A stretch of DNA of 64,000 bases from Azolla caroliniana. Taxonomy: Eukaryota; Plantae; Polypodiophyta. The DNA lies in contig JBHGNT010000022.1 of NCBI GenBank assembly GCA_043228905.1, forward strand, positions 9,796,001-9,860,000, read 5' to 3'. Within the stretch, counting starts at the first letter, position 1, and each line of letters begins with the position of its first letter. The notes under the pieces are model-generated. The model worked only from the letters and a program-made list of their open reading frames with translations, made no database searches and had not been told where the DNA came from. Both the position numbers and the translations under genes were made by a program. Below, piece after piece: positions 988-30,952 of the stretch.

Positions 988-1060
988 CAATGTATAGTCT
1001 AATGGTCAAGAGCTCGACTCATGTAGCATAAGGTCATGGGTTCGAGTCTTGCCATATCAT
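988..1060 (+). other. tRNA-derived Pol III promoter module inside an LTR (not a functional tRNA)
   Basis: A-box TAGTCTAATGG 995-1005, variable-loop AGGTC, B-box GGTTCGAGTC 1039-1048; T8-G53 spacing 45 nt; acceptor stem does not pair. Confidence 0.75.
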
Positions 1061-1064
1061 GACA

Positions 1065-2031
1065 CCAGCTATATAAGCAGATTGAGATCCATCATATTTC
1101 ATCTATGTGTTAAGAGCACATAAGAAATAGTTGGACTTGAGCCAGTTTTGTCTAGATGGACATATGTGGCTAAGTCGTCGAACGTGGCTAAGTGCTCAAA
1201 CCGACCGACGATAGAATTGGAAACCGGATGCATCCGGCAACTAGTGACCGAACGTGGATCTGGTGAGGTTTTGGCCAACCAAAACCGGCGGCGGAACCAA
1301 CTACCGGTGATCGGCATTCGGCGACGGATCCGGTGATGAACGGTGACGGAACCGGTTACTCGACATCTGGCATCTGGCATCCGACGACCTCAGGATACGG
1401 ACCAAACTGGCTCGAGATGCGGACCGAACCGGGCCAAACCGAAGGAATGCAAATCGGTCGTGGTGCATGGTGTTTTAAAGATATTTGGTCCAAAAGCCTA
1501 ATAGTATTTTGTGCATAAAAGAAAAAGATGTAAGCAAGACTCGAACTTAACACCTCCAAGATATGAAGCAATAGGCTTACCATTAAGCCAAATAATTTTG
1601 TTAAGGATCATACTTTTATCATTATAGCTTTACATGTAAATTCTCATGTGTGAGAGCTTAGATGAGGACATGGCAAGCATGCATTGCATGCATTTCATGC
1701 ATTCCGTGCATATCTTGCACCCTCACATGCACCATATGCATGGGGGCATCTATAAAAGAGTGGAGGAATCAAGTAAAAGGGGGATTTTTATCAAGCAAGC
1801 TTTTTACTTTATATCAAAATTAATATCAAGAAGAAAAATCGTTCTCCAATTGATGGTGTATCATTTTTCTTAAATCTAAAGTCAAGAGTTCTATCTTATC
1901 TCAATCTCTCTCTCTCTCAATCTATCTTAAATCCTTTCTCGCCAAAGCTAGTGCGTACTTCGAGTCCTTTCGGTCCAGAACCCCGGTGATTCCGCCTCAC
2001 GATCCGCACATAGTAATGGATCTTCACGACA
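1065..2031 (+). mobile_element. Solo LTR-like element, 5' part cut off by the Tcn1-like insertion; same family as 3156-4380 and 38735-39481
   Basis: Ends ...CTTCACGACA followed by CCGG; TATAAAA at 1751; colinear blocks of similarity to the reverse complement of 3156-4010. Confidence 0.75.
1527..1597 (-). other. tRNA-derived Pol III promoter module inside an LTR
   Basis: Minus strand: A-box TGGCTTAATGG (1590-1580), D-stem GCTT/AAGC, B-box AGTTCGAGTCT (1547-1537); spacing 44 nt. Confidence 0.75.
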
Positions 2032-2760
2032 CCGGCAAACCTTGATAATACACCTTTTTGGTGCGATCAACCAAACTGCTGGAACCCCACCCCCTCTATC
2101 TAATGCAATAGCTTGTCCATCGCGCGTAGCAATGACTTTACCTAGTAAAGCCTCAATGCGAGGAAGAACGTTCCTCCACTCCTTCCGCAAACCCGGGAAT
2201 ACTGTCGAAAAAACCATGCTAGTTTCTTGATCTTGTAAAATGTCATCCACCTTAACATTATGCGACCATTTGTGAAAGGAAATCCACGCACCTTCCACAC
2301 CCTCCTCCTTAATCGCGAAAAGCTTGTTGATAGACTCCTCATTTGCCAACTCCACATGGTAACATCCTCTGGACATAAATTGAATGTCAAGGATGTTATC
2401 CATTTCCTCCGAAAAAGCAACATATAAAATATGGAGGAATTCCGATCGATTGGGTCTTGAACCTTGCACCTGCACAACCAGTGAAAATGCTTCCAACCTA
2501 CGTACCTCACCTACCACTGTGATTTTATCCTCTTCTGATAGCACGAGGTCGACTATCTCATCACACAAATGAGGTGATGATTGGGGGGGTGCATTGGGCT
2601 CCCCTATTCGCATGTACAGTCCAATCGTCGATGGCGTTTGTGGTTGTTCTGTAGCCGACCTCCTATTCGTTCCTATCGTGGTTGCTGTAGTGTTCGCGCC
2701 TCCCACATCCTGCTCTGTACTCGTCGATGCCTTATGCATCCTCGCTTCTTCAAAAAACAC
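2032..2760 (-). pseudogene. L1-type LINE ORF1 remnant (DUF4283-like), truncated by the LTR-like insertion
   Basis: Pattern ILDIQFMSRGCYHVEL...WISFHKWSH...VFPGLRKEWRNVLPRIEALLGKVI resembles plant L1 ORF1; the ORF's last codons run into the LTR end. Confidence 0.6.
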
Positions 2761-3155
2761 CCCAATATTCCCCTTATACTACACATGTTGCACCTAACTA
2801 CAAAACCATATTGTTCCCAGAACGGGGAAACCATATACATCAATACATGTTAGAGCCCATCCTGTTATCTGCCATTCAAACCATTGCTTCCATGTGACTT
2901 AACTCACATGCATTGCGATGTGAGATGGGGCGTTGTGGCACAAGTGATGAGAGTGGTCGAGTATGCACACTTTGCCCCAAACAAGTTTCAGAGTTTGAGT
3001 ATCACACTTTGATACAATGTTATGCCTTTGATCATATTCGACCATGCTTTCTAGGGATCGGCAACGGTTCGGTTTAGGCTTAGCCGGTTTGGCCTGATCC
3101 AAGCCAAATTGGCTAAGCCTAAATCGTTTACGGGATCTCAAACCTGAGCCGAGCC

Positions 3156-4380
3156 TCGTGAAGATCCGTCACTAGGCGCGGATCGCGAGGCGGAACCGCC
3201 GGGGTTCTGGACCGGAAGGATTCGAAGTCGGTACAAGCTTAGCGAGGAAGTATTTAGGATAGATTGGGAAAGAGAGAAGTTGAGATTAAGATTAAACGCT
3301 TGACTTAGATTGAGAAAGATTGATATGGCCAAGAGACGAGAAAGTACTTAAGCTAGATTGAAAGAGAGATTAAGATTGAACTCTTGATTTTAGATTTTAA
3401 GAGACAAGTTACACCATCAATTCGATAACGAATTCTCTTCTTCTTAATTTCATAACCAAAAAAAGCCTAACTCTTCTTCTTTTTCATCCCTTCTTTTATA
3501 GATGCTCTCATGCATATAATGCATGTGAGGGTACAAGACATGCATAAAATGCATGTTTGCCATTTGGCGCTCATGTATTACATGTGGTGCATGATAACCA
3601 TGTCACTCATTTTAGCTCTCATGTATGAGAATTTACATGTAAAAGTACAATGATAGAAATATAAATTCAACTAAATGTCATGGCTTAGTGGTAAGCTAAT
3701 TGACTCTTAACTTGGAGGTGCAAGGTTCGAATCCTTACTTGCCCTCCTTGTATATATATGTATATATATGTGTGTATATATATTTATATATTTATTTATC
3801 TAGTCGTCGGACGCCGGTTCGCCGGATGTCGTCGCCTCGCCAACGTCGGATGCCGCCTCGCCAGATGTCGTCGTCTCACTGGCGCCGGATGTCGTCGGAT
3901 GCCCGTGCGCCGGATCACCGGTTGCCGGTGTGCCACCGTCGCTTTGCCGATTGTCGCCGGATCACCGGGTCCATCGCCAGTCCAGTTTTGGTTGGCCAAA
4001 AACCTTTACGAGTAGCTAGCCCACCTCCACTCTTAGTTCAAGTTACCTTGAACTCTCTATGCTCCACACATAGACACAAAGATAATAGCTTTTGCTCTAC
4101 TTTATATATGATGAGAGCTGTATTTGTCGTGCCTATGTGGGACATCTCATAGTTTTCTCTTTTCCTTTCACAAACTTTATACCCTCATATCTTGACATTT
4201 AGTTGTGCATTTCTCGTGTAATAAAGTGCATTTTAAAGCTCTTGAAGACCTCCATCATTTTATACTTAGATATTAAACTTATTTAAAATGTTATCTTCAC
4301 TATTATTGTTTTATGTGATTCATACTCGATTTTGTACGTTTTATGTGATTTTCACACTATTGCCGAAAATATTCACGACA
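3156..4380 (-). mobile_element. Solo LTR-like element nested in the hAT element
   Basis: Ends (TG missing)TCGTGAAGATCC...TATTCACGACA followed by CCGG; minus-strand TATAAAA at 3500-3494; the 4380 end resembles the start of the LTRs at 31342 and 35658. Confidence 0.75.
3674..3745 (+). other. tRNA(Lys-CTT)-like module inside an LTR
   Basis: Consensus A-box TGGCTTAGTGG 3681-3691, D-stem GCTT/AAGC, loop CTCTTAA, T-arm AAGG-TTCGAAT-CCTT with consensus B-box 3724-3734; acceptor stem lost. Confidence 0.8.
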
Positions 4381-4527
4381 CCGGTTTGGTAAACGGCTTG
4401 GAAACCGGTTTAGAAACCTCCCTCTCTCTCTCAGATGATCCACTATATACTATATACTATATACTATATACTATATGGTATACATTGTACAAGCTCTCCC
4501 TCCCACTCTCTCTCATGTTTGTGGTCT

Positions 4528-4529
<2 letters not shown>

Positions 4530-4562
<33 letters not shown>

Positions 4563-4864
4563 GTCTGTGTAGTTCTCCCTCACTCACTCTCTCTCACGTC
4601 TGTGTAGTTCTCCCTCACTCACTCTCTCTCACGTCTGAGTAGTTCTCCCTCACTCACTCTCTCTCACGTCTGTGTAGTTCTCCCTCACTCACTCTCTCTC
4701 ACGTCTGTGAGTTCTTCCTCACTCACTCTCTCTCACGTCTATGGTCTCGACTCTCTCTCTCTCTCTCTCTCCTTATATGTTGTCTCCCTCCCTCTCTCTC
4801 TCTCTCCTCGTCTGTGTAGTTCTCCCTCACTCACTCACTCTCTCTCCCATCGTCTATTTAGTCT

Positions 4865-4917
<53 letters not shown>

Positions 4918-4947
4918 CTTGTCTGTTGTCTCTCTCCCCCTCTCTCT
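4530..4947. repeat. CT-rich region with about five 35-bp tandem units and (CT)n tracts inside the hAT element
   Basis: Unit CGTCTGTGTAGTTCTCCCTCACTCACTCTCTCTCA recurs from 4562 at 35-bp period. Confidence 0.85.
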
Positions 4948-5312
4948 AAAGTTTATAAACGGCTTAAACGGTTTAGCCGGCTTAGCCGGCTTGAGCCGGT
5001 TTGGCAAGGCTCAAGCCGAGTTGAGCCGAGCTCACACCGTTAAGGCAAGTTCAAGCTTGAGTCGAGCCGAGCCAAGCCGCTAAGCTGCTAAGCCATTTTC
5101 AAGTCGGCTAAGCCAAACGGTTTAGGCTTGAGCCGAGCCGTTGCCGATCCCTAATGCTTTCCACACATCTTCGACCAATTCCAATCCTTACACAAATAGA
5201 TTTCCATGTGCTCTCGGGAATAGGCATTGGTTGTAATAAGCCATATGGATGATGTTGAGGTTGTTTTGATCGGCAACATGTATCGCAACTACGAACATAA
5301 TCCATAACAAAA

Positions 5313-8300
5313 TGTTAGGATTTTGGTCCCTCCGGATAGGATATGAGTACCCGACAATGGAAGACCCGGTGAGAACCGGATGATGTGTACCCGGCAAGGA
5401 AGACCCGGTGAGAACCGGATGATCTGTACCCGGCAAGGAAGACCCGGTGAGAACCGGATGATGTAGGCCCGGTGAGAACCTCTCACCGAATGAAGGGACA
5501 TATATGTAAATATGTTTCTTTCAGCCCATTGTGGCTATATTTGTAAATAGCCCAAAAGTCATATTAGTATAAATATAACCTAGGGCAAATAGATCAAATG
5601 TGAAGAGTGTTGTTGCATATTGGTGTAACTATTGTACAGAGTGTAACAGAGAGAGAGAGAGAGAGACCTTGAACAGTCTCTGTTGTAACCGCCTGTTGGT
5701 GAAGATTGAGAGCACGAGGTCGTTGCCTCTATGACTTATTACTGTAATCTTTACATAGTGATAGTTTGGTGTCTGTGGGCTCTCGTGGTTTTTCCCGTTT
5801 AGGGTTTTTCACGTAAACCTCTTGTGTACTCTCTTTTTGGGTGTACATGTATTCATCTCTATCTCATTTCTGTGTTTGATCCTTAAACGAAGTGATTCAA
5901 GACTCGGTTGTGGCCAAGCAATATTCTACATTATTCTCTTCAATCGGGTATTAGAGCAAACAACACATGAAATGGAAGAACCGTTTGGCGGCATGTTCAA
6001 GCTCACCGGCTCCAACTAGTCAGTGTGGAAGTCGAAGATGAGGGACATGCTGGTGGTTAAAGATCTTTGGTTGCCGGTTCAGTTTGGGGACAAGAGACCG
6101 GATAAGATCGACGCCACGGTGTGGGAGGTGATGCACATGAAGATGACGGCATACATCCGGTGTTTCATCGACATGAGCTTGTACAACAACTTCAATGAAG
6201 AGAGCAAGGCTCATGAACTCTGGGAGAAGATCGGCATTATGTTCCAAAACAAAAATGCTGTTAATCGGGTTTCGGTATTCCGGAAGCTAGTGAGGCTCCG
6301 ATACCAAGATGGCTCCAGTATGTGCGGAGCATATGAATGCCTTCTAGGGACTGATCCATAACGCAACCTCGTTGGAGGTACCTCTCGCCAATGAGGTACG
6401 TGCTCTACTCCTGCTCGGTTCCCTCCCAGATAGCTGGGAGACATTAGTTGTCACGTTGCGCAACGCCTGGCCGGAAGGAAAACAACTATCCCTAGCAAGG
6501 GTCAAGTCGAGCTTGCTAGATGAGGAGGCGCGTCGGAAAGACAAGGAGGTAATCTCCGACACCAAAGCCCTCCTTACCGAATTGGAACGTGGAAGACAAA
6601 GGAATCGGAGTCCCCAGAACCGGGAAAAGTCGGGGACACGGTCAAAGTCAAGGGGGAGGCCCACTTGATTCTATTGTGGCAAGCCGGGGCACTTCCAGAA
6701 GAACTGTCGGCATTTCCAGAAAGACAAGGGAACCGATAGTATCGATTCGAAGAAGTCACCGGACCGAATCGGTTCGGATCCGCGAGATCCGGACCGGAAG
6801 GGAACGGCGGCGATCACAGCAAGTGAAGAAGAACTAATGCTCATCACCGAGGAGAGAGAGTTGAACCTTGCCGTCAACGAGACAATGTGGGTTGTTGATT
6901 CCGGAGTGTCGTTCCACCTTACCCCAGATCGGAAATGCTTTTCATCCTACACAGCCGGTGAGCACGGCTGTGTCCGGATGGGGAATGAAGGGACATGACG
7001 AATTATCGGCATAGGAGATGTGTTGTGGATGACATCAACCGGATGCAAGTTGCTATTGAAGGATGTCCGACACGTTCCGGAGGTTCGACTGAACCTAATA
7101 TCAGCTGGTCGGCTAGACGATGAAGGCTACATGGGTAGTATCCAAAATGGAGTCATGAAGTTTAGTAAAGGGAGCCTAATAGTGGCTCAGGCCCGGAAAG
7201 TCAACACATTGTACCTAATGAATGCCCAGTTATGCCGGGAAGAAGTGAATGTTGCATCCGACATTGCCGGTGAGCTATGGCACAAGAGACTGTGTCACAT
7301 GAGCGAGAAGGGGATGAAGAGGCTTGCCGATGACAACCTCATTCCAATGAAAGACATGCATCTTGAGAAGTGCAACGACTACCTGGCCGGTAAGCAAAAC
7401 CGGACCTCCTTCTGCTCAAGGCCACCGATGAGACGTAATGCACCACTGGAGTTGGTGCATACCGATGTGTGTCAAGTGGACACGAAGTCACATGCCAGAT
7501 CGCATTACTTCGTGACGTTCATAGACGACCACAACCGGAAGTTGTGGGCCACGCTGTTGAAGACCAAGTGTGGGACCCCGTCGACAAGAAGGTGTTTCGG
7601 AGTCGAGATATTATCTTCATGGAGGACAAGACCCTTGCCGACTTGGAGTCGGAGAAGAAGATAATGAACTCCGAGTCGACTAGTAAGGATCGGTTCGATG
7701 AGATGCAAACCCAACCGACAAAGAGCCAATTAACACTCGAAGAACTAGCTGGTTACGGAGAGGACACCGAACAGGCAGAAGAAGTAGGAACCGGAACCGG
7801 CCAAGATCCCGAATCGGATTCGGATGAAGAACAAACAGAGGAGCCGGTTGCCCGAAACCAAAGACGCAGATATCCTCTCAGAGAGAGAAGGCCCCCCTAG
7901 AGATTTCCGGACCCAGAGCATGTACTTCTAACCGATCAGGGGGAGCCGGAAAACTTCGAAGAAGCTAAGAGAGACACCCACACCCGCAAGTGGTTGAGTG
8001 CCATGCAGGACGAGTTGGATTCCCTGCATGAGAACCACACGTATGTATTGGTGGAGTTGCCGAAAGGAAAGAGGGCACTCCGAAACAAGTGGGTGTACAA
8101 GCTGAAACCGGGAGATGCCGGCAACCCCCCAAGATACAAAGCCAACATCGTGGTGAAGGGATTCTAGCAGAAGAAGGGCATGGACTTCGACGAGATATTT
8201 ACCCCGGTAGTAAAGATGACTTCCATCCGGATGGTGTTGAGCATAGTGGCAAGCATGGACCTCGAGGTAGAGCAGTTAGACGTGAAGACAATGTTCCTCC

Positions 8301-10119
8301 ACAACGACCTCGAAGAGGAGATCTACATGTAGCAACCAGAGGGATTTGTGAAGAAAGGGAAGGAGCACCTGGTTTGCCGATTGAAGAAGAGCCTCTACGG
8401 TTTGAAGCAGGCTCCCTGGCAATGGTACCGGAAGTTTGACTCCTTCATGACGGATCAAGGATACCACAAGACGCAGGCCGATCACTGAGTGTTTGTGAAG
8501 AAGTTTGAAGGTGGAGACTTCCTAATACTCCTCCTGTACGTGGACGACATGTTGATCGTCGGACGAGACCAAGTCAAGATACGGACACTGAAGAAGGATC
8601 TGAACCGGACCTTCTCAATGAAAGACTTGGGTCCGGCAAGAGAGATACTGGGGATGCATATCATCCGAGACCGGTCATAGAAGCAATTGTGGCTGTCACA
8701 GGAGAAGTACGTGACAAAGGTGCTTTAGCGGTTCAACATGTCAGATGCGAAACTGGTTGGATCGACACTCCCGGAAAATTGCAGGTTATCCGGTAAGCAA
8801 AGCCCGAAGACGAAGGCCGAGAAGGCGGATATGATGAAGATACCATATGCCTCTGCCGTCGGAAGCTTAATGTACGCAATGGTGTGTACCCGATCAGATA
8901 TCAGATATGTAGTCGGAGTGGTGAGCCGGTTTATGAGCAATCCCGGCAAGGAGCACTGGAATGCGGTAAAATGGATACTCTGATACTTGAAAGGCACCTC
9001 ATGTGTCTCCGATTCGGCTCTGGTAAACCCCAACTTGACGGTTTCACCGATTCGGATATGTCGGCTGATGCGGATACCAACCGCTCAACATCGGGATATG
9101 TCATGACATATGCAGGGGGAGCTACTTCGTGGCAGTCGAGGTTGCAAAAGATGGTTGCATTGTCAACCACAAAGGCGGAGTACATGGCAGTTGTGGAAGC
9201 CGGAAAGGAAATACTGTGGATGAAGGACTTCATCGGAGAGCTAGGGATCCGGCAAGAGGAATAACGGCTCTACTGCGACAGTCAGAGTGTCATCCACCTT
9301 GCAAAGAACGATGGGCCTATCATTTTAGGACAAAGCACATCCAACGCAGGTACCACTAGATCCGTGAGCGAGTTGAAGATCGAGAGTTCGTGTTGATGAA
9401 GATCCACACGGAGGACAACGGGTTGGATATGCTGACCAAAGTGCTGACACCCGACAAGCTAGATGCATGCAGGAAGAGGATCGGATTGACGAGGCATCCC
9501 ATGCTAGAGTGAAGGGGGAGTTTGTTAGGATTTTGGTCCCTTCGGATGGGATATGAGTACCTGGCAACGGAAGACCCGGTGCGAATCGGATGATGTGTAC
9601 CCGGCAAGGAAGACCCCGTGAGAACCATATGACGCAGGCCCGGTGAGAACCTCTCACCAGATGAAGGGACATATATGTAAATATGTTTCTTTCAGCCCAT
9701 TGTGGCTATATTTGTAAATAGCCCGAAAGTCATATTAGTATAAATATGACCTAGGGAAAATAGATCAAATGTGAAGAGTGTTGTTGCATATTGGTTTAAT
9801 TACTGTACAGAGCGTAACAAAGAGAGAAAGAGAGCTTGAACAGTCTCTGTTGTAACCGCCTGTTGGCGAAGATTGAGAGCACGAGGTTGTTGCCTCTGTG
9901 ACTTATTACTGTAATCTTTACATAGTGATAGTTTGGAGTTTGTGGGCTCCCGTGGTTTTTCCTGTTTAGGGTTTTCCACGTAAACATATTGTGTACTCTC
10001 TTTCAGTGTTTTGTGTATACGAACATTTATCTCCACATTCCCATTACTGTGATTGTAATTCTCAACGAAGTGATTGAAGACTTGGTTGTGGTTGAGCATT
10101 ATTCCGCATATTCTCTACA
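5313..10119 (+). mobile_element. Ty1/Copia LTR retrotransposon (Tnt1-like), decayed, both LTRs present
   Basis: LTRs 5313-5942 and 9523-10119 (TG...CA); TSD CAAAA; degenerate Met-i PBS GGTATTAGAGC near 5947; PPT AGAGTGAAGGGGGAG 9506-9520. Confidence 0.95.
5972..9510 (+). pseudogene. Copia gag-pol polyprotein, disabled
   Basis: Gag LLLLGSLPDSWE, zinc knuckle, protease WVVDSG, GAG-pre-integrase LWHKRLCH, integrase LELVHTDVC, RT LLLYVDDML, RNase H SDMSADADTNRSTSGY; many stops and frameshifts; most of the integrase core is deleted near 7566. Confidence 0.93.
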
Positions 10120-15434: not shown

Positions 15435-16194
15435 TGTTAAGAATTAGGGAAGTAATTAAGCAAGGGATAATAAGTACCTAATTATGTGATTAAGTTAAGC
15501 ACGGAAGATTATGTGATATGTGTGTAAGAGGAAGAGAGAGAGAGGAAGTTAACACTTATGACCAACACAAGATGGGGGATGATTAACTCTATATTAATTT
15601 AACATCATTATCATCAAATACAAAAATACCCACAATGAGGTATATATAGATCTCATGTGCAAGGGTGCACATGTGTGAGGAGAATATAGGTACAAGGGTG
15701 TAAGTCCTATATTAAATGTACTTGGGAGTGGAGGATCTAGAATAGGGAAAAGTACCAGGATACCCCTGGAAGTTCGTCTATTTACCAAAATGCCCTTGGA
15801 AGTTCCAAATTTACCAAACTACCCCTATGTCCAAAAAATTACACTTTATAAAGTAATTATACACTCAAATCTTTAGTAAATAGGGCTAGTTCGGGTCCAT
15901 TTCTTCCATCTTTGGTAAATAGGGCTTGTAGATTTGAGTGTATAAGTACTTTATAAAGTGTAATTTTGTGGACATAGGGGTAGTTTGGTAAATTTGGAAC
16001 TTCCAGGGGCATTCTGGTAAATAGATGAACTTCCATGGGTATCCTGGTACTTTTCCCTCTAGAATATCCCACTTAAGTACAAGGTCCTATTTAAGGCGTT
16101 ATAGTCAACACTTCTAACTAGATTCTATCTAGGTAACTATGAAGTTACATGGTTGACTAACTAACTAAACTAAGTTGAGCTTGATCTCTCAACA
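15435..16194 (-). mobile_element. Copia-type solo LTR
   Basis: TGTTAAGA...TCTCAACA; near-TSD GAACA/AAACA; right end (GTTGAGCTTGATCTCTCAAC) matches the LTR end of the Copia at about 20620-20639. Confidence 0.65.
15745..16057. mobile_element. Mutator-like MITE (foldback) inserted in the solo LTR
   Basis: About 127-bp TIRs starting GGGAAAAGTACCAGGATACC; perfect 9-bp TSD TCTAGAATA (15736-15744, 16058-16066). Confidence 0.92.
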
Positions 16195-19600: not shown

Positions 19601-22600
19601 TTCGCTAATCGGCACCAAATTTGGCTTGCCATGTCCTTGATTTCCACCAACAACATCACTTATCATGTCCAACGACACTGCATCATAGTCCATTAGGTAA
19701 GTAACAAAACCTGCCGAAAAGTATCAAACAATACAGATTACTTTGAATAGAAAAATATAAATATCTCCCTATCACTCCGTAGGAACACTTCTTCCTCCCA
19801 TAGCAACATCCTTTTCCAACAAAGAAAAGAATTATTATGTTTATCAACAAGTTATGTTGTTATGTGCTCTGAAATAAGAAAGGACTAGGCGGAGGAAACA
19901 ACCATCGTGGTGACACATAATTCCAACAGTTTTCATGTGTCCCATCCAACCATAGAGGTATTGGCCACCATAAAATAATCCATCTTTGTAAGCCAATCCA
20001 ACCATAACACTTCTAGTGACCATGATGACTACCAACAATTGGGCAGTTGAACCTGAGACACATCATCAAGACGCAATGACAAATCAATGGAAAACAAAAG
20101 ACAACTTTATGATGTGAGACTTAGATAAGAAGAAGTTGGGAGTATACATCGTTGTCAAGAGAATACAAGTAGAAATGGAGACAATGAACCAAAAGAAACC
20201 GTGTTGATCTCCACCATCGTCAATACCAAGCCAACCTCTTTGGTTATTCCAAACTAAATCTTTGGATTTTATTTGGAAATTGACAACCTATTTGATGGCA
20301 CTGATAACATGTTCTAGCAAATGTAATGAAGAGATAAATGTTGATAGAAACTAGAGTCAAGAAACTATGGATTAGAGAACTTAAATTACCTTCGAAAACT
20401 AGTGGTTGAATTTGCAAGCAACAAATGACTAGACACCTACAACACATAAGAAATCTTCTAGAGCTATAGAATCTCATGGGTCATGGGGAATGTGGAATTC
20501 ATTAGTTTTGTGTCATAGAATATGATTCTATGACACATAGTTAATGTGTAGAGAGTAGTGGTAACTTTTGACCTTTGAGTGCTCATAGATTCTTAAATGT
20601 GTGTTCACACACTAGACTAGGTTGAGCTTGATTCTCAACCGCCCCCTCAAGCTCAACTTGGATCGGCTTCTTTTGGTTGATGTCTGCTTTGGCTTGTACC
20701 CGGTTTGGACAGTATCCGTTTCTCGGTTCTCTCTTGTACTCCCCCTCAAGTTTGGCAAGTCAAGGATCGTCAATCCAAGGTCTGACATGAATTGCCCAAG
20801 CTTGTCAGCTCCTACAGCTTTGGTGAAGATGTCGGTTGTCTGAAGATTCATGTTGATGTGTTAAAGGTCGACATCTCTAGCTTGAACGTGCTCTCAGATG
20901 AAGTGATAGTGCACTTCAATATGCTTCGTGCGTGCGTGGAACATCGGCTTCCGAGCCAGATAAATATTGCTCATGTTGTCGCAGTAAAGGGGAGTCGGAT
21001 CCTTGATGGGGACACCCAGATCCTTCAAATTCTCATGAGCCATACAACTTCACATGCAGCCACAACCATGCCCTTGTATTCGGCCTCTGTGCTCGAAAGT
21101 GCAACAATCAGCTGCTTCTTGCTACTCCAGGATATTGGTCCATTTCCGAGGGAGAAAACAAATCTAGAGGTCGACCGTCTGTCGACTTTGTAGCCAGCCC
21201 AGTCGGCTTCTGTGTACCTTTCGAGTCGAATTGGCATTGCCGTCTTGTAGAGGATGTCACAATCCATTGGGCCGCACACGTGTCGTAACATTGGCTTAGC
21301 GCAATCCAAGTGAATGTCATGTGGCTTTTGCATGAATTGGCTAAGGAGACCGACTAGGTAGCTTAGGTTGCGATAAGTGATTGTGAGATAAATGAGGCTC
21401 TTGATCAGTTGTTGATACTAAGTCGGCTCACACTCTGTGGTGCCAAAGTCGGCATCCAACTTGAGGTTTCAATCGAGAGGGGTTGCCACAGACTTACACT
21501 TAGTCGTCCTGAAAGATGTAGTGTCATTGAGAGATCATAAGCTAGAGTCTGAATTACTTCAATACCTAGGAAGTAATGGAGCTCCTTCATGTCCTTCATC
21601 TCGAATTTGCCGGAGAGGAGGAACTTGACCTTGTTGATGTCAACTAGATTTTCACCTCCAATGACCAAATCATCCACGTATAGGATGATGACAATCAGAC
21701 TTCCAAAATCGCTTCTTATGTAGAGGGAGTTGTCAGATTTTGACATTCGAAAGCCGATCAATGATGCTTTCAGATGGGCGTTGGATTCGAAGCCGGATGG
21801 TTGTACCATGTACATCTCCTCTTCTAATTCCCCTTGAAGAAAGGCATTCTTGACATCCATCTAGTGGAGGTGCCACCCTTTTGCTACTGCAAGTGCAATC
21901 ACGATCCACACAGTCGTCATCTTTGCCATCAGGGCAAAGGTTTCTTCATAGTCAACTCCATGTGTTTGTGTGTATCCTTCGCTACGAGTCGGGCTTTGTA
22001 GTGGTTGATAAAGCTGTCAGCATTATACTTCACTTTGTAAATCCACTTGTAGTATATCGCCTTTTTGTGTGGTGAGTGGGGAACGAGATCCCATGTCTCG
22101 TTCTTGCATAATGCCTGCATCTCCTCGTTCATTGCTTCAACCCATCGTGGATCCTTGGCGCCTCGGAAAACTTTTCCGGTTCATGAACTATTGCCACCTT
22201 CATCATAAAGGCATAGTGATATGCCATATAGTTATTGTAGCCAAATTGGCTAACTTGATTCTTCTCTCGGGTGGAGTGACGGAGTTTCTCATTTGTTGTG
22301 GCAATGGCTTTCTTTACACCAGATGTCCTCATGATGAGTACATCAAAGCCACCAAACTCAATGTCGAGTGAGTGATCGATTCATTGCTGTCAAATTGATC
22401 ATCTTCATATTCCAGCATTTTGGCCTTGCCTTTGCCCATCTTCGAACTTGGCCGAGATGTGCTCTGGTCACTCGGGGGCTCTTGTGTCCCATTAAGCCTA
22501 GTCGTGATCGGACTTTCTTCGAACATATGCCTCAGTTGATCTTCGTCTTCTATCTCTTGGTTGGCCAAGTTCGGGTCGACCGGAAATGGTTCGGGAGTTG

Positions 22601-23113
22601 GCTCAGGTTCGTACCATGATGCCGATTCATCGAAGATGATGTGTCGACTTACAGGAACCTTCAGAGTGGAGGGGTTGTGTCGTGACTCTTGAGTAGGAAG
22701 CAGAGAGAGAGAGCGATGGCGATAGAGATAACGATAACGATAGAGATGGCGAGAGCGGTAGAGATAGCGATAGTGATAGAAAGAGAGTGAAAGAGGGAGA
22801 GAGTGCGAGAGAGAGAAAAGTATAAGTGAGAGATAAGAAATGGGAATGCGATTATATTATGAGAAAGAAGATTACAAGGAGTAGGCTAAGGGCTAAAGAC
22901 TGGTGTTGAACCGAATGAGTTGTGATGAGTGTATGGACTCTTATTTATAGGCCCTTATGGAGTATTCTAGAATGTTCTAGAATATTTTAGATATTTATGA
23001 ATAATAATAATAATAAATATAATCATGAAATATTCAAGAACATTCTAGAATAATCTAGAATGTTCTAAATATCTTGTAATAACTAAACATATAATTATTA
23101 TGATTACATCTCA

Positions 23114-23185
23114 CATATGTTATTACAATGGTTAAAGTACAATATGTAAACCAAGAGGTTATGGGTTCGATTCCTGGTTCGCCAA
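23114..23185 (+). other. tRNA-derived module in the 3' LTR (identical copy at 28500-28571 in the 5' LTR)
   Basis: Degenerate A-box TATTACAATGG 23121-23131, D-loop TGGTTAA, GAGGTT, consensus B-box GGTTCGATTCC 23164-23174, ends TTCGCCA; spacing 44 nt. Confidence 0.7.
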
Positions 23186-23218
23186 GATGAATGTCATGAT
23201 AAGCCAAGATGTATGTCT

Positions 23219-26200
23219 TCATGACATTATCCCCCCTTTTCGATGACGAGTTGCACGAGTCGGAAGAAAAGAGTTCAGACTTGGTTTATGAGGATATTGG
23301 TTGTGAAATGCAACAACCATGTCAGAGGCATTGGCAAGATGTTCGGCAGGCTCCCATGTTCGATCATTAGGTGTATAGCCTAACCAATCAACCAAGTAGT
23401 ATAGTTTGTTGCGAATGATCTTGGAGTCGAGGATAGCGGCAACCTCATATTCAGAGCCATTGGAAACGTCAATTGGAGGTGGGGGAGGTGTAACACGACC
23501 CGGAATAGAGCTCGTTGTGTAAGGCTCCAAAAGTGAAACATGGAAGACCGGGTGAAGACGCATATGAGGAGGAAGATCAAGACGAAATGTCACATCATTG
23601 ATCTTACCACTTATGACATATGGGCCAAAACGTTGATAATCCAATTTGTAGCAAGGTCGGGTCGTTTTAATGCTACCTTGTAAGAGCCATACACGATCGC
23701 CTACTTGAAATGTAGTCGATGAATCACGCCGATGACGGTCAGCAATCTTCTTTTGAGTGTTTTGGGCTTCACATAAATGATGCAAAAGCATATCCTGAAC
23801 TTCTTGGAGTCGAGTGAGCCGATCTTCAGCAGCTGGGTTTTTTGGGAGTTCAGGATGTTCAAGCATCGTCCAACGAGGATGGTACCCAATGTTTGCAAAA
23901 AATGGGGAATATCCAGTGGAAGAATGCTCGGAGTTGTTATAAGCAAATTCTGCCAAAGGTAGTAAATCCACCCAATCATCTTGTTGATAGTTGACAAAAC
24001 AACGTAGATATTGCTCGACTGTTTGGTTGGTGCGCTCACTCTGCCCATTAGTCTCTGGATGGTAGCCGGAAGAGAGTTTACAAGAAGTATGTAAGAGTCT
24101 GAACATGTGCCGCCAAAATTTCGAGATGAATTGGGGACCCCGATCACTGATAATATCATCCGGAAGACCATGATGGCGAAACACCTCCCGCATGAGTAAA
24201 TCAGCTGTCTCTTGACTAGTAATGGTCTTTGTGCATGGAAGGAAATGTGCCATCTTCGTAAAACGATCGACAACAGTGAGAATCGAATCAAATCCCTTGG
24301 AAGGTGGAAGATCCGTAATAAAGTCCAAGGAAATAGATTTCCATGGGCTCTCCGGAATAGGCATTGGCTGTAATAAGCCATATGGATGATGTCGAGGCTT
24401 TTTTGATCGGCAACATGTATCACAGCTACGAACATAATCCGTAACAAAATGGCGAAGCCGTGGCCACCAATATCGGCGAGAAATCAACTCAAAAGTCTTG
24501 TGGATGCCGAAGTGTCCCGCCATTGGTGTGTCATGACATTGTTGCATGACTTTGAGTCGAGAAGGACCGTCAGGCACATACAAGAGAGTTTGTCGAAAAA
24601 GTAACCCATCATGCCAACTAAACTGGGTGTAGTCTAGACGAGGATTTTGAGTTTGGGAGCTAGATGCACGATTTGGGATAATATGGCTCAAAACCTCTTG
24701 GGCGAACGCATCAGTCGCAATCTGCTCACGAATGGAATCAAGAAGCCTTGAATCTCCCGGTGTGTTGATGGTATGCATTGCCATTATTCGTAGACGATTA
24801 GGACCTAAGAGGATTTGCTTTTGGCTTTCAAATGCGGCCTCTCCAGGTTGAAGTTCCATATACGAACGTCTAGATAAAGCATCTGCTTTTCCTTGTTGCA
24901 TCCCAGGGCGATATAGAATTACAAAATCGAAACGAGTTAAGAACTGCGCCCAACGAGCTTGTCGTCGATTCAAGACTCGAGCACTTTGAAAGTATGTTAG
25001 ATTTTTATGATCATTGTAGACAATAATCTGCTGAGAAGAACCCTCCAGAAAATGACGCCATTGTTGAAAAGAATCCACCATGGCAAGAAGCTCTTTGTCG
25101 TGAATCTCATAGTTGATTTCTGCGGCTTCAAATTTTCGTGAGTGAAAAGCCACCGGGTGCAGTTCACCATCATCACCAATTTGGGATAGTACACTTCCGA
25201 GTGCGAAATCCGATGCATCAGCTTCAAGTATAAAGCGCCTCATTGGATCGACATGGATTAAGATTGGTGCGGATGTAAATGCTTGCTTTAAACCCTCAAA
25301 TGCAGAGTTCGCATCTATACTCCATACAAATGATCGATTCTTGTGCGTCAGTTGAGTGAGGGGCAACACAATTTTTGAATAGTCTTTGATGAACTTGCGA
25401 TAAAAGTTTGCGAACCCCAAAAAACATTGCACATCTCGCACGGACTGTGGTGTTTGCCAATCCAAAATTGTTTGAACCTTTGATGGATCCATAGAGATGC
25501 CATTTGAAGAGACTATGTACCCCAAAAACTCCACTTGACGTTGGTCGAAACTACACTTCTCCAATTTTGCATAGAGACCATACTCTCGTAGCCGTTGCAA
25601 AACTTGGCGAACATGTATATCATGTTCTTCTTGAGTTTTTGAGTAGATCAAGATATCATCCAGGTAAACAATGATGAAGATATCGAGGAAGTCTCGAAAA
25701 ATATCATTCGCCATATGTTGGAAGACTGCTGGTGCATTCGTGAGGCCAAAAGGCATCACTGTGTACTCAAAATGACCATAGCGAGTGCGGAACGCCGTCT
25801 TCCATTCATCCCCAGGACGAATTCGAACAAGGTTGTAGGCACCTCGAAGATCTAACTTCGTGAAATACTTTGCTTCACTGAGGCGTTCTAGAAGGCTTGA
25901 GATCAATGGGAGAGCATATCGGTTTCTAACGGTCACTTTATTCAAGCCTCGATAATCCACGACCATACGAAGCGTACCATCTTTCTTCTTAACGAAAAAG
26001 ATGGGTGCACCAGCAGGAGATTTTGAATGTTGGATAAAACCATTTGCCAAGTTCTCATTGATATATTCTCGAAGTACCTCTAACTCCGTGGGCGAAAGAT
26101 TATAAATTGGTCCCCATGGAGGCTCTTTTCCTGGCTGCAAATCGATTGGGCAATCATATGGTCGATGCTCTGGTAGTCTATTAGCCTTCACCTTATCGAA

Positions 26201-26863
26201 CACATCGGAGAATTCTATGTACTTCTTTGGTAGTTGGACCCCCAATTCTTGTGAGCTAGATGAGGGAGTTGCTAAAACCGCAAATACCATCATGTCTTCC
26301 TTTCTTCTATCCTCTCGTAATTGATGTATAGAGATTGTTGAAATTGTGGGGGATCCTAGATCCTTAGTTGGAGCTTCAAGAGACTTGGATTGTACGGTGA
26401 CCTCTTCAATAGTTCTTTTTCTCCAATCAATGGTTGGGTTATGTAACTCAAACCAAGGAAGACCAAGAACTAGAGAGTGCTCCGGACTACTAATGATGTT
26501 AAATGAGATGACACTAGCCAAATTACCTAGGACTACACGAATTGGTTCAGACTCTTCGACTATATCTCCTGATGCTATAGGGCGACCATCGATGACTCCT
26601 ACAGCTACTGGGTTTGGGAGTTTTTTCAAGATGATGTTTTGAGTCAATGCAAACTCGCGATCCATGAAACAAGAATTGGCTCCGGAATCTAGGAGGGCAG
26701 AGGCTAGGGCGCGATGACCTGTAGATGTGCTAAGCTCGACTTGTGCAGAAAAAACTCTACTAACTTGATTTGATGAAATGGAACCACAACTAGGTACTGA
26801 CTCTACATAACTAGGATGGTCCAACCAAATGGCTCCTATTTTGGCCGGACTTATTCGTTTAAC
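23219..26863 (-). CDS. pol: Pol (protease, RT, RNase H, integrase, chromodomain), probably entered by -1 frameshift
   Basis: LLDSGA, YLDDILIY, DASDFALG, HHCC plus DDE integrase, GPY/F motif, chromodomain YEVAAILD...YLVDWLGY...WEP; no ATG start, frame open across the gag end. Confidence 0.97.
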   Translation of the reverse strand, partial: VKRISPAKIGAIWLDHPSYVESVPSCGSISSNQVSRVFSAQVELSTSTGHRALASALLDSGANSCFMDREFALTQNIILKKLPNPVAVGVIDGRPIASGDIVEESEPIRVVLGNLASVISFNIISSPEHSLVLGLPWFELHNPTIDWRKRTIEEVTVQSKSLEAPTKDLGSPTISTISIHQLREDRRKEDMMVFAVLATPSSSSQELGVQLPKKYIEFSDVFDKVKANRLPEHRPYDCPIDLQPGKEPPWGPIYNLSPTELEVLREYINENLANGFIQHSKSPAGAPIFFVKKKDGTLRMVVDYRGLNKVTVRNRYALPLISSLLERLSEAKYFTKLDLRGAYNLVRIRPGDEWKTAFRTRYGHFEYTVMPFGLTNAPAVFQHMANDIFRDFLDIFIIVYLDDILIYSKTQEEHDIHVRQVLQRLREYGLYAKLEKCSFDQRQVEFLGYIVSSNGISMDPSKVQTILDWQTPQSVRDVQCFLGFANFYRKFIKDYSKIVLPLTQLTHKNRSFVWSIDANSAFEGLKQAFTSAPILIHVDPMRRFILEADASDFALGSVLSQIGDDGELHPVAFHSRKFEAAEINYEIHDKELLAMVDSFQQWRHFLEGSSQQIIVYNDHKNLTYFQSARVLNRRQARWAQFLTRFDFVILYRPGMQQGKADALSRRSYMELQPGEAAFESQKQILLGPNRLRIMAMHTINTPGDSRLLDSIREQIATDAFAQEVLSHIIPNRASSSQTQNPRLDYTQFSWHDGLLFRQTLLYVPDGPSRLKVMQQCHDTPMAGHFGIHKTFELISRRYWWPRLRHFVTDYVRSCDTCCRSKKPRHHPYGLLQPMPIPESPWKSISLDFITDLPPSKGFDSILTVVDRFTKMAHFLPCTKTITSQETADLLMREVFRHHGLPDDIISDRGPQFISKFWRHMFRLLHTSCKLSSGYHPETNGQSERTNQTVEQYLRCFVNYQQDDWVDLLPLAEFAYNNSEHSSTGYSPFFANIGYHPRWTMLEHPELPKNPAAEDRLTRLQEVQDMLLHHLCEAQNTQKKIADRHRRDSSTTFQVGDRVWLLQGSIKTTRPCYKLDYQRFGPYVISGKINDVTFRLDLPPHMRLHPVFHVSLLEPYTTSSIPGRVTPPPPPIDVSNGSEYEVAAILDSKIIRNKLYYLVDWLGYTPNDRTWEPAEHLANASDMVVAFHNQYPHKPSLNSFLPTRATRHRKGGIMS

Positions 26864-27978
26864 ACATCCTCTAATTGGCTCAAGACATCAAATCTATTCT
26901 CATGGCATGGGCTAGTAGGCTTAGTACTTAAGTTATTAGAAGTGATAGTAGAACTTGATGTAGGGTTGTCATGTGCACTTACTTGGTAAACTTGACGCCT
27001 GGGTTTATGTGGACAATTCACAGCTATATGTCCTGGACCACCACAGTAGAGGCATAGGCGATGCGCCCGACGTCGTTGTTTCTCAGCATCTGATAAGGGC
27101 CCTCGACGTTGTGTCGACTCTATTTCCATCGGAGTGGGACCATCCCTCGTAACGGGTCTAGAACCTTGTGGCGGTGTGGCGACTATAGAAGCGTATGTCT
27201 GTTCCGGCTGGCGGCGTAACATTTGTTGACGTTCAGAACGTCGCTCAAATAGGCGATTATCACATCGCACAGCTCGGCTAATAGCTTCAGTAAGAGACTT
27301 TGGATCTTCATGGAAAGTAAGAAGAAGATCTTTGACATCGTTACGCAAACCCTGACGGAATTGATCCATTAAGGCTGCCTCATCCCAAGGGATGTCGCAT
27401 GCCAAGAGACGGAAATCTGCGGCATAAGCTGAAGCGGGACGATCTCCTTGTCGGAGTCTTCGAATCTTGTTTATTGCAGTCCTAGTGCTATCCGTATCTC
27501 CAAAACTAGCTTGAAACTCCTTAACGAATGCCTCGAAATCCTCCAGTAATGGTGATTTCTTCTCAAGAAGTGGTGCAAACCATGCTAACGCTGTACCGCT
27601 TAGCAAGGTTCCTATTAATCCCACACGGGCAGCATCAGTTGGATACCGATTGGGATGTAACTGAATCACCAAACGAACTTGATTCAGGAAACCTCGAAAG
27701 AGAGATCTGGTACCATCAAACTTGGCAGGGAGGCTAATCTTTGGTTCCCTTGGGGAGTTTTGAACCCCTGCCGCTTGTTCTCGTAATGTTAATATAGTAG
27801 CCTCAAGTTGATGAACCCGTTGTGATAACTCCTCATATTGATGAGCTTTCTCAGTACTGACTTGTTGAAGATCCCCGAGTAGCCTTTGATTTTCTTGCTC
27901 TAATGCCACAAACTTAGTGGTGAGCATATCGAGCTCCGAAAGGACACGCATATACTCTTGCTTGCTGACCGACTCCAT
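26851..27978 (-). CDS. gag: Gag (PEG10/Tcn1-like capsid plus CCHC zinc knuckle)
   Basis: 375-aa ORF: coiled-coil N-terminus, PAKFDGTR, LRQGDRPASAYAADF, CLYCGGPGHIAVNC. Confidence 0.97.
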   Translation of the reverse strand: MESVSKQEYMRVLSELDMLTTKFVALEQENQRLLGDLQQVSTEKAHQYEELSQRVHQLEATILTLREQAAGVQNSPREPKISLPAKFDGTRSLFRGFLNQVRLVIQLHPNRYPTDAARVGLIGTLLSGTALAWFAPLLEKKSPLLEDFEAFVKEFQASFGDTDSTRTAINKIRRLRQGDRPASAYAADFRLLACDIPWDEAALMDQFRQGLRNDVKDLLLTFHEDPKSLTEAISRAVRCDNRLFERRSERQQMLRRQPEQTYASIVATPPQGSRPVTRDGPTPMEIESTQRRGPLSDAEKQRRRAHRLCLYCGGPGHIAVNCPHKPRRQVYQVSAHDNPTSSSTITSNNLSTKPTSPCHENRFDVLSQLEDVLNE

Positions 27979-28050
27979 AACCGCGGGGGAAAAAGAAAGA
28001 AGGATAAAGAAGAAAGCTTGCTAGAGTTATTGGAGAAAGGGAAAAGAAAT

Positions 28051-28063
28051 ATTCGGTTCAAAC
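28051..28063 (-). promoter_or_regulatory. Self-priming primer-binding site
   Basis: Minus strand GTTTGAACCGAAT directly after the 5' LTR; lacks TGG; 11 nt complementary to ATTCGGTTCAA at 28302-28292. Confidence 0.88.
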
Positions 28064-28327
28064 TGTCGTGACTCTTGAGTAGGAAGCAGAGAGAGAGAGC
28101 GATGGCGATAGAGATAACGATAACGATAGAGATGGCGAGAGCGGTAGAGATAGCGATAGTGATAGAAAGAGAGTGAAAGAGGGAGAGAGTGCGAGAGAGA
28201 GAAAAGTATAAGTGAGAGATAAGAAATGGGAATGCGATTATATTATGAGAAAGAAGATTACAAGGAGTAGGCTAAGGGCTAAAGACTGGTGTTGAACCGA
28301 ATGAGTTGTGATGAGTGTATGGACTCT

Positions 28328-28335
28328 TATTTATA
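28328..28335 (-). promoter_or_regulatory. LTR TATA box (predicted TSS 28302)
   Basis: TATAAATA 33 nt upstream of the self-primer sequence. Confidence 0.75.
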
Positions 28336-30952
28336 GGCCCTTATGGAGTATTCTAGAATGTTCTAGAATATTTTAGATATTTATGAATAATAATAATAAT
28401 AAATATAATCATGAAATATTCAAGAACATTCTAGAATAATCTAGAATGTTCTAAATATCTTGTAATAACTAAACATATAATTATTATGATTACATCTCAC
28501 ATATGTTATTACAATGGTTAAAGTACAATATGTAAACCAAGAGGTTATGGGTTCGATTCCTGGTTCGCCAAGATGAATGTCATGATAAGCCAAGATGTAT
28601 GTCTTCATGACAGGTTGAAGCACTTGTACCCCTTTTGCTCTAGTGAGTATCCTACGAGGATACACTTCTCCGACTTGGGATCTAGCTTTGGCCGCTTTTC
28701 GTTGGGAATGTGCACGTATGCAATTGAACCGAATATCCTTACCTAGGATAGATCCGGTTTCTTTCCATAGTACTTCTTGTGCGGGGTAAGTTCGTGCACA
28801 CTAGATGTTGAACACCAATTCAGGAGGTAGACGGCAGTATTTGCTGCTTTGGCCCAATATGACTTCGGCATGTGCTTCTCATTAAGCATGGCCCGTGCTA
28901 CTTCGAGGATGTGCCGATTTTTGCGTTCAGTCACTCCATTCTATTGTGGTGTATGTCGAAAGGAAAATTCTTGCCTAATTCCTTCTTGTCGAAGGTATGT
29001 TGTGAATGCATCAGAGAAGTATTCCTTGCCTCCATCTGATCAAACACATCGTACATGAGGGCCGGTTGTCTTTTCGACTTCGTTTTTGAATTTAACACTT
29101 CACTCTTTTGCCTCATGGGGTAGATCCATGTGTGCCTAGAGAAGTCATTGATAAAGGTCACATAATATTGGCATCCGCTGAATGTAGCCGTCTAAGCTGG
29201 TACCCATACATTGGAATGAATTACATCAAGTATACCTTTGCTCACATTCCTATCTTTCGGGAACAGGTACCGATGTTGCTTACTAAATTGGCAGGTTGCA
29301 CATACGCCTTCAATCTCTTTCTCTTTGAAGGTCAGGAGGCCGATGACGACTCCTTTCATTTGCATCGCCTTGAATTTATTGAGATTGATGTGGTCGATTC
29401 TCTTGTGCCATAGCTCTATGTCAGTGTCGGCTTTGGTGCATTTTGCAAACATGGCCGATTTCATCTCGTGTGAATCGAGAATGAATATTCCTTCAACCGC
29501 GAGCAATGAGTCAACCCTCTTTTTCGATGAAGCAACTACCTTGGTTAAACCTAACTTGCATGCCTTGCTCCACAATTTGACCGATTGGGACCAAATTGTT
29601 CGTGATGGTCGGTACATGAAAGACATTCTTAATGTAAGTTTGGTTGCCTTCTTTGCCGAATGGAACTGCCGATGTGACGAATCGTATGAGTAGTGTCATC
29701 TCTGGTCTCGACATAACCAGGTCGATCCGGCTCTCGTAAGCCTCAGAACCATTTTTCATGAGACGTCATATGATTCGAAGCACCAGAGTCAATGAACCAT
29801 ACATCTTCTTGACTAGAGGCACTAGTTGAAGTAGAGGCATGATTGTCATAGTCGGAGTTGGTGGTGCTATTGGTGAGTTGTCGGCTTGTGGAAGCCGACT
29901 CGCGCGTCTTCTTCTGGCACTCTTCTTCGTGGTGGCGGATTTTGCCGCAATATCCGCATTCGATTGAGTTTTGGTGACTTGGACCAGCATAGAAGCCCCC
30001 CCTTCTTCCGAACATCCCTCTATTGTTTCTGCTTTCTTGCCGAAATTGGGAGTTGTTTTCATAGGTTGGACATCGTCCGCCTCGTCCTTGGACGAATCGG
30101 CCTCTTCTTGCTTGATTGCATCCTCTTCCTCCGTCCAAATGTGTGTAGAGCATTTGACCTTCTGAGGAGTTGCTCCTTGTTCGAACATGGTTTTCTTCAA
30201 CCAACAACATTGATTGAAGATCGAAGAAAGGGGGGGGATTCTCCCTTGCTAGAACAACAGTTGTCATCGCGCCGAACCGTAGTGCGAGGCCTCTTAGGCA
30301 TATTTGCACCATCTCATCATCCTCCACATTGACACTTATTGAGCTGAGTGAATCACAAAGCTCCTTGATCTTCAAGGTGTAGCTCGTGATGGACATATCC
30401 CTTTGTTGGATGTTGTTTAACTCTTGCCGGAGTTGAAGCTTTCGTGCCGTCGTATTGGCGGAGAATATCTTCTTGAGATTCTCCCAAGCTTCCTTTGGCA
30501 TCTTAGCTTCTCAGATGTAGCCAAGCATGTGATCATGGACACATGTTGCCAAGCAATACACTATTCAGCTTGCCGCTTACTCCCATGTTGAGTAGTCGGC
30601 GTCCTTAGGGCCGGGTTTGTTTTCTTGTGCTCCTTGAATGTAGCCCCAATAGCCTTGGCCGACAAGGTATTGATGCATCTTGTACCCCCAAGATGCAAAG
30701 TTGTTTTTGTCCAACTTCTCGCTAGGGAGAGCGCTCCCCATTTCAGTATTTATTCTGTCGATGTAGATTTCTTTCTTCTTTTCCTTCCCTCTCGAACACG
30801 AGCCATGTAATGGCAATACGATAACGATGAGTTGGTTCTTCGTGAATGTCAATGTAGAACACAACACACACAGATGGGCTAGATCGAGCTACCAAATCAC
30901 TCTGATACCATGTAAAGAATCGGATATGATTCTATGTAGTGGAAGAGATGTG

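Follow-up and report, generated by a model that had tools for sequence, protein, structure and literature searches.

Why would an autonomous retrotransposon with a TATA box of its own carry the worn promoter of a tRNA gene, facing backward, in its long terminal repeats (LTRs)? The question is raised by a 64,000-nucleotide stretch of the fern Azolla caroliniana (contig JBHGNT010000022.1, positions 9,796,001 to 9,860,000; the window in what follows), in which LTRs of two families contain an A box and a B box arranged as in a type 2 RNA polymerase III (Pol III) promoter. One of these families is represented by an intact, self-priming chromovirus of Tcn1 type. The reading that we favour, and to which we give about an even chance, is that this backward tRNA-type promoter at the edge of U3 is kept as a likely binding site of the factor TFIIIC, a portable boundary that would guard the RNA polymerase II (Pol II) promoter of the element.

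Five tRNA-type promoter modules in the window

We scanned the window for an A box and a B box at tRNA spacing, with at most two mismatches over both boxes to consensus patterns. In such conditions exactly five modules were found, whereas 40 block shuffles averaged 0.075 and never exceeded 1; a looser scan (two mismatches in each box) gave eight matches against a null of 2.6. All five had been located, with their strands, in a preliminary description of this DNA, and its distances between T8 of the module and the TATA box (115, 161, 181, 172 and 172 nt) proved exact. By these patterns and by their workable spacing the modules have the make-up of a type 2 Pol III promoter or TFIIIC site.

ARAGORN called no tRNA in the window and the Rfam tRNA model gave no match there at E ≤ 10; when ARAGORN was relaxed and applied to the modules, the output was pure noise, so that no tRNA isotype can be named. 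The earlier term "tRNA-derived" therefore has its basis in the sequence and spacing of the boxes and in letters of the variable loop, and in no match by either program. The window contains only two independent Tcn1-type LTRs and two copies of a second family (family 2). The main bearer is the intact chromovirus, the parts of which are as follows.

22678..28612, minus strand: Tcn1-type chromovirus (Ty3/gypsy), 5935 bp, open frames, nested in a Copia element
28064..28612, minus strand: 5' LTR, 549 bp, no difference from the 3' LTR
22678..23226, minus strand: 3' LTR, 549 bp
28507..28560, plus strand: A box and B box module of the 5' LTR, antisense relative to the element; the outer LTR edge is 52 nt away
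23121..23174, plus strand: A box and B box module of the 3' LTR
28330..28335, minus strand: TATA box for Pol II in the 5' LTR, at 172 nt from T8; the self-primer follows after 33 nt
28291..28302, minus strand: predicted self-primer (RNA 5' end), complementary to the primer-binding site (PBS) and covarying with it in relatives
28051..28063, minus strand: PBS of the self-priming type
26851..28020, minus strand: gag frame, stop to stop, 389 amino acids, with capsid and zinc knuckle
23219..26887, minus strand: pol frame, 1222 amino acids, with reverse transcriptase, RNase H, integrase, SH3 and chromodomain; overlaps gag
23231..23240, minus strand: polypurine tract

The element is flanked by a 5-bp target duplication (22673-22677 and 28613-28617). 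That modules reside in an intact self-priming chromovirus was correctly recognized in the preliminary description: the LTRs are identical, gag and pol are open and a chromodomain is present. The Tcn1 clade is recognized by self-priming, by a target duplication of 5 bp, by a gag frame that overlaps pol and by a chromodomain (PMC6317226). The element has all of these, the chromodomain being C-terminal, together with the Gypsy domain order, and by these hallmarks we call it Tcn1-type; the tree of its relatives contains no named Tcn1 row. The self-primer is complementary to the PBS in both chromovirus elements of the window, and the two covary in three relatives (L031, L040 and L045), with one mismatch in a fourth (L036).

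The two modules of the element read in different surroundings. From the 5' LTR the reading direction is outward, into flanking DNA; from the 3' LTR it leads to the complement of the polypurine tract and pol, with a first TTTT run at 23237-23240.

Three further details of this element were observed. The pol frame extends across the polypurine tract, its stop being among the first bases of the 3' LTR (23219-23240), as in most close relatives. In comparison to its closest relatives, both LTRs have a 22-nt partial duplication at the outer end (28560-28612 and 23174-23226), and the B box lies 52 nt from the LTR edge, against 30 nt in those relatives. The U3 stretch between module and TATA box (22960-23105 and 28346-28491) is AT-rich and self-complementary with repeated short palindromes, in relatives too, and is a candidate factor-binding or nucleosome-free region.

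The other module-bearing LTRs lie at the left end of the window.

635..1064, minus strand: 430-bp 5' LTR of another Tcn1-type element, which is decayed and inserted into copy a of family 2
995..1049, plus strand: A box and B box module in the same LTR, at 15 nt from its edge and 115 nt from the TATA box
1065..2031, plus strand: right part of LTR copy a of family 2, with CCGG as the flank after it
1537..1590, minus strand: module of A and B boxes in copy a, with the TATA box 161 nt away
3156..4380, minus strand: copy b of family 2, a solo LTR with a length of about 1.23 kb, in a hAT-type-looking repeat; high-copy family
3681..3734, plus strand: module of A and B boxes in copy b, with perfect boxes and D-stem and the TATA box 181 nt away

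A gag remnant of the decayed Tcn1-type element, with two stops in frame, occupies 1-560.

The module is widespread among relatives of the chromovirus

We scanned metagenomes with the C-terminal part of pol; the survey material consisted of metagenome contigs and run contigs, and the runs containing the chromovirus include leaf and plant metagenomes. At least 73 loci were recovered, 41-98% identical, on contigs of one accession series. The start of the 3' LTR was found and at least 110 nt were available in 47 of them, which we call usable; five were too short and in 21 no start was found. A module was here defined as an antisense A and B box with at most three mismatches, spacings of 41-47 being allowed. 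Some of the listed loci are duplicates, and the counts that follow hold among the matches listed.

An antisense module is present in 36 of the 47 usable 3' LTRs, ending 15-62 nt from the LTR edge; in one of these positives (L065) the A box is a false one after a break. At the same score none of the 46 sense-strand and none of the 41 downstream control windows contained it. Two loci in which no LTR start was found (L085 and L087) and the second LTR in L037 are also module-bearing. Among the 11 failures, three are interrupted within the module and four are decayed, two of the latter with a recognisable remnant. For the 41 usable loci with enough coding sequence, we observed that the module is kept in 16 of the 17 with an open pol end and in 15 of the 24 in which it is broken (Fisher p = 0.028).

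In a quick tree, built after removal of identical rows and of those with fewer than 120 aligned residues, the listed loci form one clade (34 rows, 99% support in the Shimodaira-Hasegawa-like approximate likelihood ratio test). The module occurs in all its main branches except two small ones that hold short or decayed copies only. Scans of viral contigs returned distant elements only, or nothing. The loci L097-L113 are eukaryotic Gypsy contigs inside bacterial genome records, apparently contamination.

The position of the module had been described as fixed relative to the TATA box. This did not hold: the distance from T8 to the TATA box is 99-252 nt in the relatives (21 values), and therefore the module of Tcn1-type elements is tied to the outer LTR edge and not to the TATA box.

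Could the modules belong to a free tRNA-derived short interspersed element (SINE) that occurs sporadically in LTRs, the outcome named in the preliminary description as fatal to its proposal? The frequency of the module in the usable relatives speaks against it, as do its constant position at the edge of U3 and the finding of neither a common 3' sequence nor a tail or flanking target duplication of its own. Outside the LTR edges, 196 kb of loci contain only two other A/B matches, one of them a true tRNA-Arg gene; this result covers the surveyed loci, and a related free SINE may exist elsewhere in the host genome. The side records here are a tRNA-Arg(ACG) gene call in L086 (1046-1118) and a separate tRNA-like A/B element in L037 (2953-3005).

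Ty3 integrates at tRNA genes, and a bound TFIIIB/TFIIIC complex could similarly draw integrases to the module, which would be a landing pad or tether with elements nested upstream. Two cases have this appearance: a Gypsy element with a tRNA-type PBS 9 nt upstream of T8 (L081, at about 319) and a Copia element 16 nt upstream (L080, at about 446). However, these are only two events from two superfamilies at different distances, and the other breakpoints lie inside the module or far away. In addition, an insertion ruins the LTR, hence a role as landing pad would not be selected for. Among the explanations considered we hold this one to be the least probable.

Boxes and spacing are conserved, RNA fold and terminator are not

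For the conservation analysis we took 22 non-redundant modules, less than 85% identical, from the listed relatives. Their mean pairwise identity is 0.69 in the A box, 0.77 in the B box and 0.72 at positions 44-51, against 0.40 in the anticodon arm, 0.39 upstream and 0.42 and 0.37 on the two acceptor sides. In 15 aligned pairs of closer relatives, the A-box core (0.96), the B box (0.87) and positions 44-51 (0.86) again exceed the anticodon arm (0.70) and the upstream DNA (0.74-0.80). The comparison of the boxes with the rest, proposed beforehand as a check, thus came out in favour of the boxes, and their decay at the neutral rate, part of a second outcome that was to count against the proposal, is contradicted: they have not drifted as the spacer has.

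Some of the conservation of the boxes follows from the choice of the modules by box match; only positions 44-47, the spacing and the contrast between open and broken pol ends are independent of that choice. The AGGT columns, which lie outside the search pattern, are kept in 21 (A44), 19 (G45), 22 (G46) and 22 (T47) of the 22 modules. The spacing is 43 or 44 in 34 of the 36 modules, though 41-47 was allowed. The CpG of the B box is kept in 15/22.

These numbers bear on the possibility that the module is a passenger, left in an ancestral LTR by an old SINE or tRNA pseudogene insertion and functionless since. A single ancestral capture would account for the whole clade, and copies without A box or without module, as well as module-less outgroups, exist. 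Nevertheless, identity in spacer and flanks has fallen nearly to the random level, in contrast to the conserved boxes, AGGT and spacing, and the B-box CpG survives in most modules; we therefore consider a mere passenger very unlikely.

We then asked what the conserved letters could specify. Folding of single modules gave a mean z of -0.4, with only L036 standing out, and folding of the alignment gave no consensus RNA fold. Pairs of the cloverleaf form in 47% of cases against 45% after shuffling (55% in the D-stem), and the acceptor, D, anticodon and T stems of a functional tRNA are not found together. A conserved RNA structure was rejected on these three negative results. The first TTTT lies from 0 to more than 1000 nt downstream across the modules, and a shared terminator supplied by the complement of the polypurine tract, which we also considered, holds in one sub-family only. 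Boxes, AGGT and spacing being kept and cloverleaf, fold and terminator not, the pattern points to selection on a DNA element rather than on an RNA product.

The strongest competing explanation is nevertheless an active Pol III gene, in which the module of the 3' LTR would produce a short transcript antisense to U3, to the polypurine tract and to the end of pol, tuning the element's expression or feeding small-RNA pathways. A working promoter requires the A and B boxes, spacing and AGGT, and these are kept; the DNA upstream of the module is AT-rich; and in the sub-family of the window the complement of the polypurine tract supplies a TTTT 40-62 nt after the B box. Foamy viruses transcribe Pol III RNAs from their LTRs (PMC3993851). 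Against this stand the lack of a shared fold, a terminator position that differs across families, a 5'-LTR copy that reads into arbitrary flanking DNA, and a CAA near the start in only 8/22 modules versus a background of 0.19 per window. We regard such a gene as unlikely, more worth keeping in view than the other alternatives.

The tRNA origin could also be incidental, the kept letters being sites of Pol II factors in an upstream enhancer. On the sense strand TGACC is read across positions 44-48, the best-kept columns, G46 and T47, lie outside the canonical B box, and the module tolerates the variable distance to the TATA box given above. But in two unrelated LTR families both boxes fit the TFIIIC consensus with tRNA spacing between them, something a Pol II factor would have no need of, and this makes an enhancer quite improbable in our view.

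Family 2 probably gained its module separately

The family-2 module is in the middle of the LTR, T8 being at position 700 of 1225. This family, module included, is deeply covered by contigs of four runs (three organism codes), in which the empty site of copy b is also visible. Of the two copies presented earlier as solo LTRs, copy b (3156-4380) is one, as its empty-site joints indicate; for copy a (1065-2031), the left part of which is interrupted by the decayed Tcn1-type element and lies outside the window, the label is tentative.

The flanks of family 2 are CCGG in the window, and ACGT ends are found in 38-78 contigs per run. A 4-bp NCGN target has been reported for Phygy only, a non-chromovirus Gypsy clade (PMC6317226, in its available part), and family 2 resembles it by its CG-centred four-letter flanks. 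We sought an internal or coding region of family 2, where the non-chromovirus Gypsy polyprotein and the tRNA-Trp PBS of Phygy would be expected, in the contigs and none was recovered; because of this, its assignment to the Phygy lineage, by the 4-bp target alone, is likely and not proven.

Is the module of family 2 the same as that of the Tcn1-type elements? On the non-box columns the two family-2 modules score -3.6 and -5.3, versus a leave-one-out range of 1.0-32.2 for Tcn1-type modules; the true tRNA-Arg gene scores 0.4 on the same columns. Common descent is thus unsupported, the family-2 scores being outside the Tcn1 range, and a separate capture is favoured. Family 2 probably gained a module of its own, great age being the alternative. 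It shares AGGT at positions 44-47 with the Tcn1-type modules.

Beside these copies, a 747-bp solo LTR at 38735-39481 has the U5 end and CG-centred flanks of family 2, without a module, and a relative of it is nested in the Tcn1-type LTR of L073. Copy b and a CT-rich minisatellite are hosted by a non-coding DNA transposon (3052-5153) with inverted ends and many subterminal repeats, which we take to be hAT-like from its terminal motif.

A proposed portable TFIIIC boundary

How could a backward promoter serve its bearer? The ancestor would have captured a tRNA gene, or the head of a tRNA-derived SINE, in its U3, and reverse transcription would copy the module into both LTRs of each new insertion. 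TFIIIC, the natural ligand of A and B boxes (PMC13578239), may then bind it, with or without TFIIIB and Pol III. In yeasts such complexes are barriers to heterochromatin (PMC2040200); they are also roadblocks to transcription that reads through and to Pol II starts lying upstream (PMC4228148). In the same way the bound complex could slow the spreading of heterochromatin and block transcripts reading in from neighbours, which would let the Pol II promoter stay open and start at the right place within silenced DNA rich in repeats. If Pol III made any RNA there, it would be a by-product without a fixed length.

Self-priming makes an element dependent on the exact 5' end of its RNA, as was established for Tf1. 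The chromodomain likely steers the element to heterochromatin, and with an RNA 5' end that is also the primer a boundary would matter. The chromodomain-bearing RLG1 of moss sits in heterochromatic islands and is yet transcribed (PMC7466625). Since neither fold nor terminator is conserved, a TFIIIC site in DNA is a better fit than an outward RNA of defined form, and this part of the earlier interpretation agrees with the sequences; its fixed TATA position does not.

Several observations weigh against a boundary. First, 11 of the 47 usable relatives fail the definition of the module. Three of them, L039 (coverage 11), L056 and L095, keep TATA box and self-primer without an A box, L053 is without the whole module, and module-poor copies thus exist. 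No module was found at three mismatches or fewer in 24 more distant chromovirus-like loci (600 nt or less scanned after the match), nor in the published LTR of SM-Tcn1 of Selaginella, which we read by eye (PMC2864245, supplement S3), nor in the scanned family-2 relative at 38735-39481. Outgroups without module mean that the life cycle works without it, and because of them and of the sub-lineage lacking the A box, the sequences show that it is not essential. Secondly, the rows compared are related and partly duplicates, so that neither 22 nor 47 is a number of independent cases, and the choice of modules by their boxes has been mentioned above. Thirdly, fixed spacing and AGGT are no obvious requirement of a bare TFIIIC barrier; a B box acting as a simple barrier leaves these features unexplained, and therefore the RNA reading stays alive. 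Finally, yeast tRNA genes can also repress the adjoining Pol II promoter (PMC4228148), and in the literature covered we found no B-box barrier activity in plants.

On balance we place the portable boundary first, at about an even chance, followed in this order by the antisense RNA, the Pol II enhancer, the passenger and the landing pad. The broader statement, that autonomous plant retrotransposons have at least twice turned a captured tRNA-gene promoter into a portable TFIIIC boundary, and that this is a general counter-silencing device, is possible, though on the present sequence comparisons we doubt it more than we believe it.

Elements that insert into heterochromatin have to be transcribed all the same, and a selected, outward-facing TFIIIC site would offer a testable account of how this is done. 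If it is right, the boundary would let heterochromatin-targeting elements stay expressed. Plants would then have a Pol III-type insulator for the first time, and with it their first case of the barrier that tRNA genes make in yeasts. The families being high-copy, many TFIIIC sites would then be scattered through the genome.

Other features of the window

An element with LTRs of about 640 bp (92% alike) and a GC-rich, repeat-laden interior at 31342-36312 has no module; its four longest frames had no Pfam match, and it is possibly a non-autonomous LTR element. A decayed Copia element at 5378-10119 (LTRs 87% identical) has none either. A reverse-transcriptase frame of a long interspersed element (LINE) is at 35939-38400, with a second fragment of the same LINE family at 2040-3051. 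Long inverted repeats at 15733-16069 and 47998-49310 are likely miniature or non-autonomous DNA transposons. Part of a BRUTUS-like hemerythrin gene is found at 51728-53371, its frame being 42-64% identical to named vascular-plant proteins.

Comparison with known systems

Pol III promoters in LTRs are already known from Cassandra, Helenus and foamy viruses. Our literature search covered little of the subscription literature, and in it the module is not described in an autonomous plant element. In their available parts, the Tcn1 papers (PMC6317226, PMC2864245) and the RLG1 paper (PMC7466625) do not mention polymerase III, a 2025 review of plant LTR elements names Cassandra as the only Pol III case (PMC12786077), and three further papers (PMC13570524, PMC12477816, PMC10946416) add no autonomous case. 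Kojima mentions that "not a few" LTRs in Repbase have tRNA-like parts, of which only the short ones were followed up (PMC10886601).

With the Tcn1 clade the chromovirus shares self-priming, the 5-bp duplication, overlapping gag and pol, an aromatic-cage chromodomain and a non-seed plant host (PMC6317226; PMC2864245). Read by eye, SM-Tcn1 of Selaginella has the same layout of PBS and primer (PMC2864245, supplement S3) and differs in that its LTR contains no tRNA-type promoter. We also observed by eye a self-primer complementary to the PBS of SM-Tcn1, though PMC2864245 reports finding none.

Yeast tRNA genes and extra-TFIIIC (ETC) sites are the model for a boundary: B-box sites, including a tRNA pseudogene, act there through bound protein beside a Pol II promoter (PMC2040200; PMC4228148). 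These are fixed fungal loci with an experimentally shown function, whereas ours is a mobile plant element known from sequence alone.

Foamy viruses are also autonomous, Pol II-driven LTR elements with Pol III units of A and B boxes in the LTR (PMC3993851), and are thus a precedent, absent from the preliminary description, for autonomous LTR cassettes of this kind. Their product is a structured microRNA with its own terminator and known targets (PMC3993851); here, fold and terminator are not conserved.

Among plant elements, Cassandra and Ajax, two miniature terminal-repeat retrotransposons (TRIMs), have a Pol III promoter in both LTRs that is kept by selection (PMC10886601; PMC12786077; PMC10946416). 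They differ from the chromovirus in being non-autonomous, with a type 1 promoter derived from 5S RNA that in Cassandra drives the element's own RNA (same sources). The Helenus TRIMs (TRIMp3) come closest, with a tRNA-like LTR stretch in which A and B boxes are kept and the cloverleaf is lost, and the capture of a SINE or tRNA has been proposed as its origin (PMC10886601, Kojima 2024). Helenus elements are non-coding, 311-1263 bp long and tRNA-primed, and their boxes are thought to transcribe the element; autonomous partners are expected by Kojima to use Pol II and not to share these LTRs (PMC10886601). The chromovirus is autonomous, 5.9 kb long and self-primed, with a TATA box of its own and boxes facing away. 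It shares with Helenus one of four features, the tRNA-like boxes in the LTR, and not the other three (a short non-coding body, a tRNA PBS, a Pol III promoter driving its own RNA). The chromovirus thereby extends the idea born with Cassandra and Helenus, from short elements that copy themselves through Pol III to full-length elements that would use the same signals otherwise.

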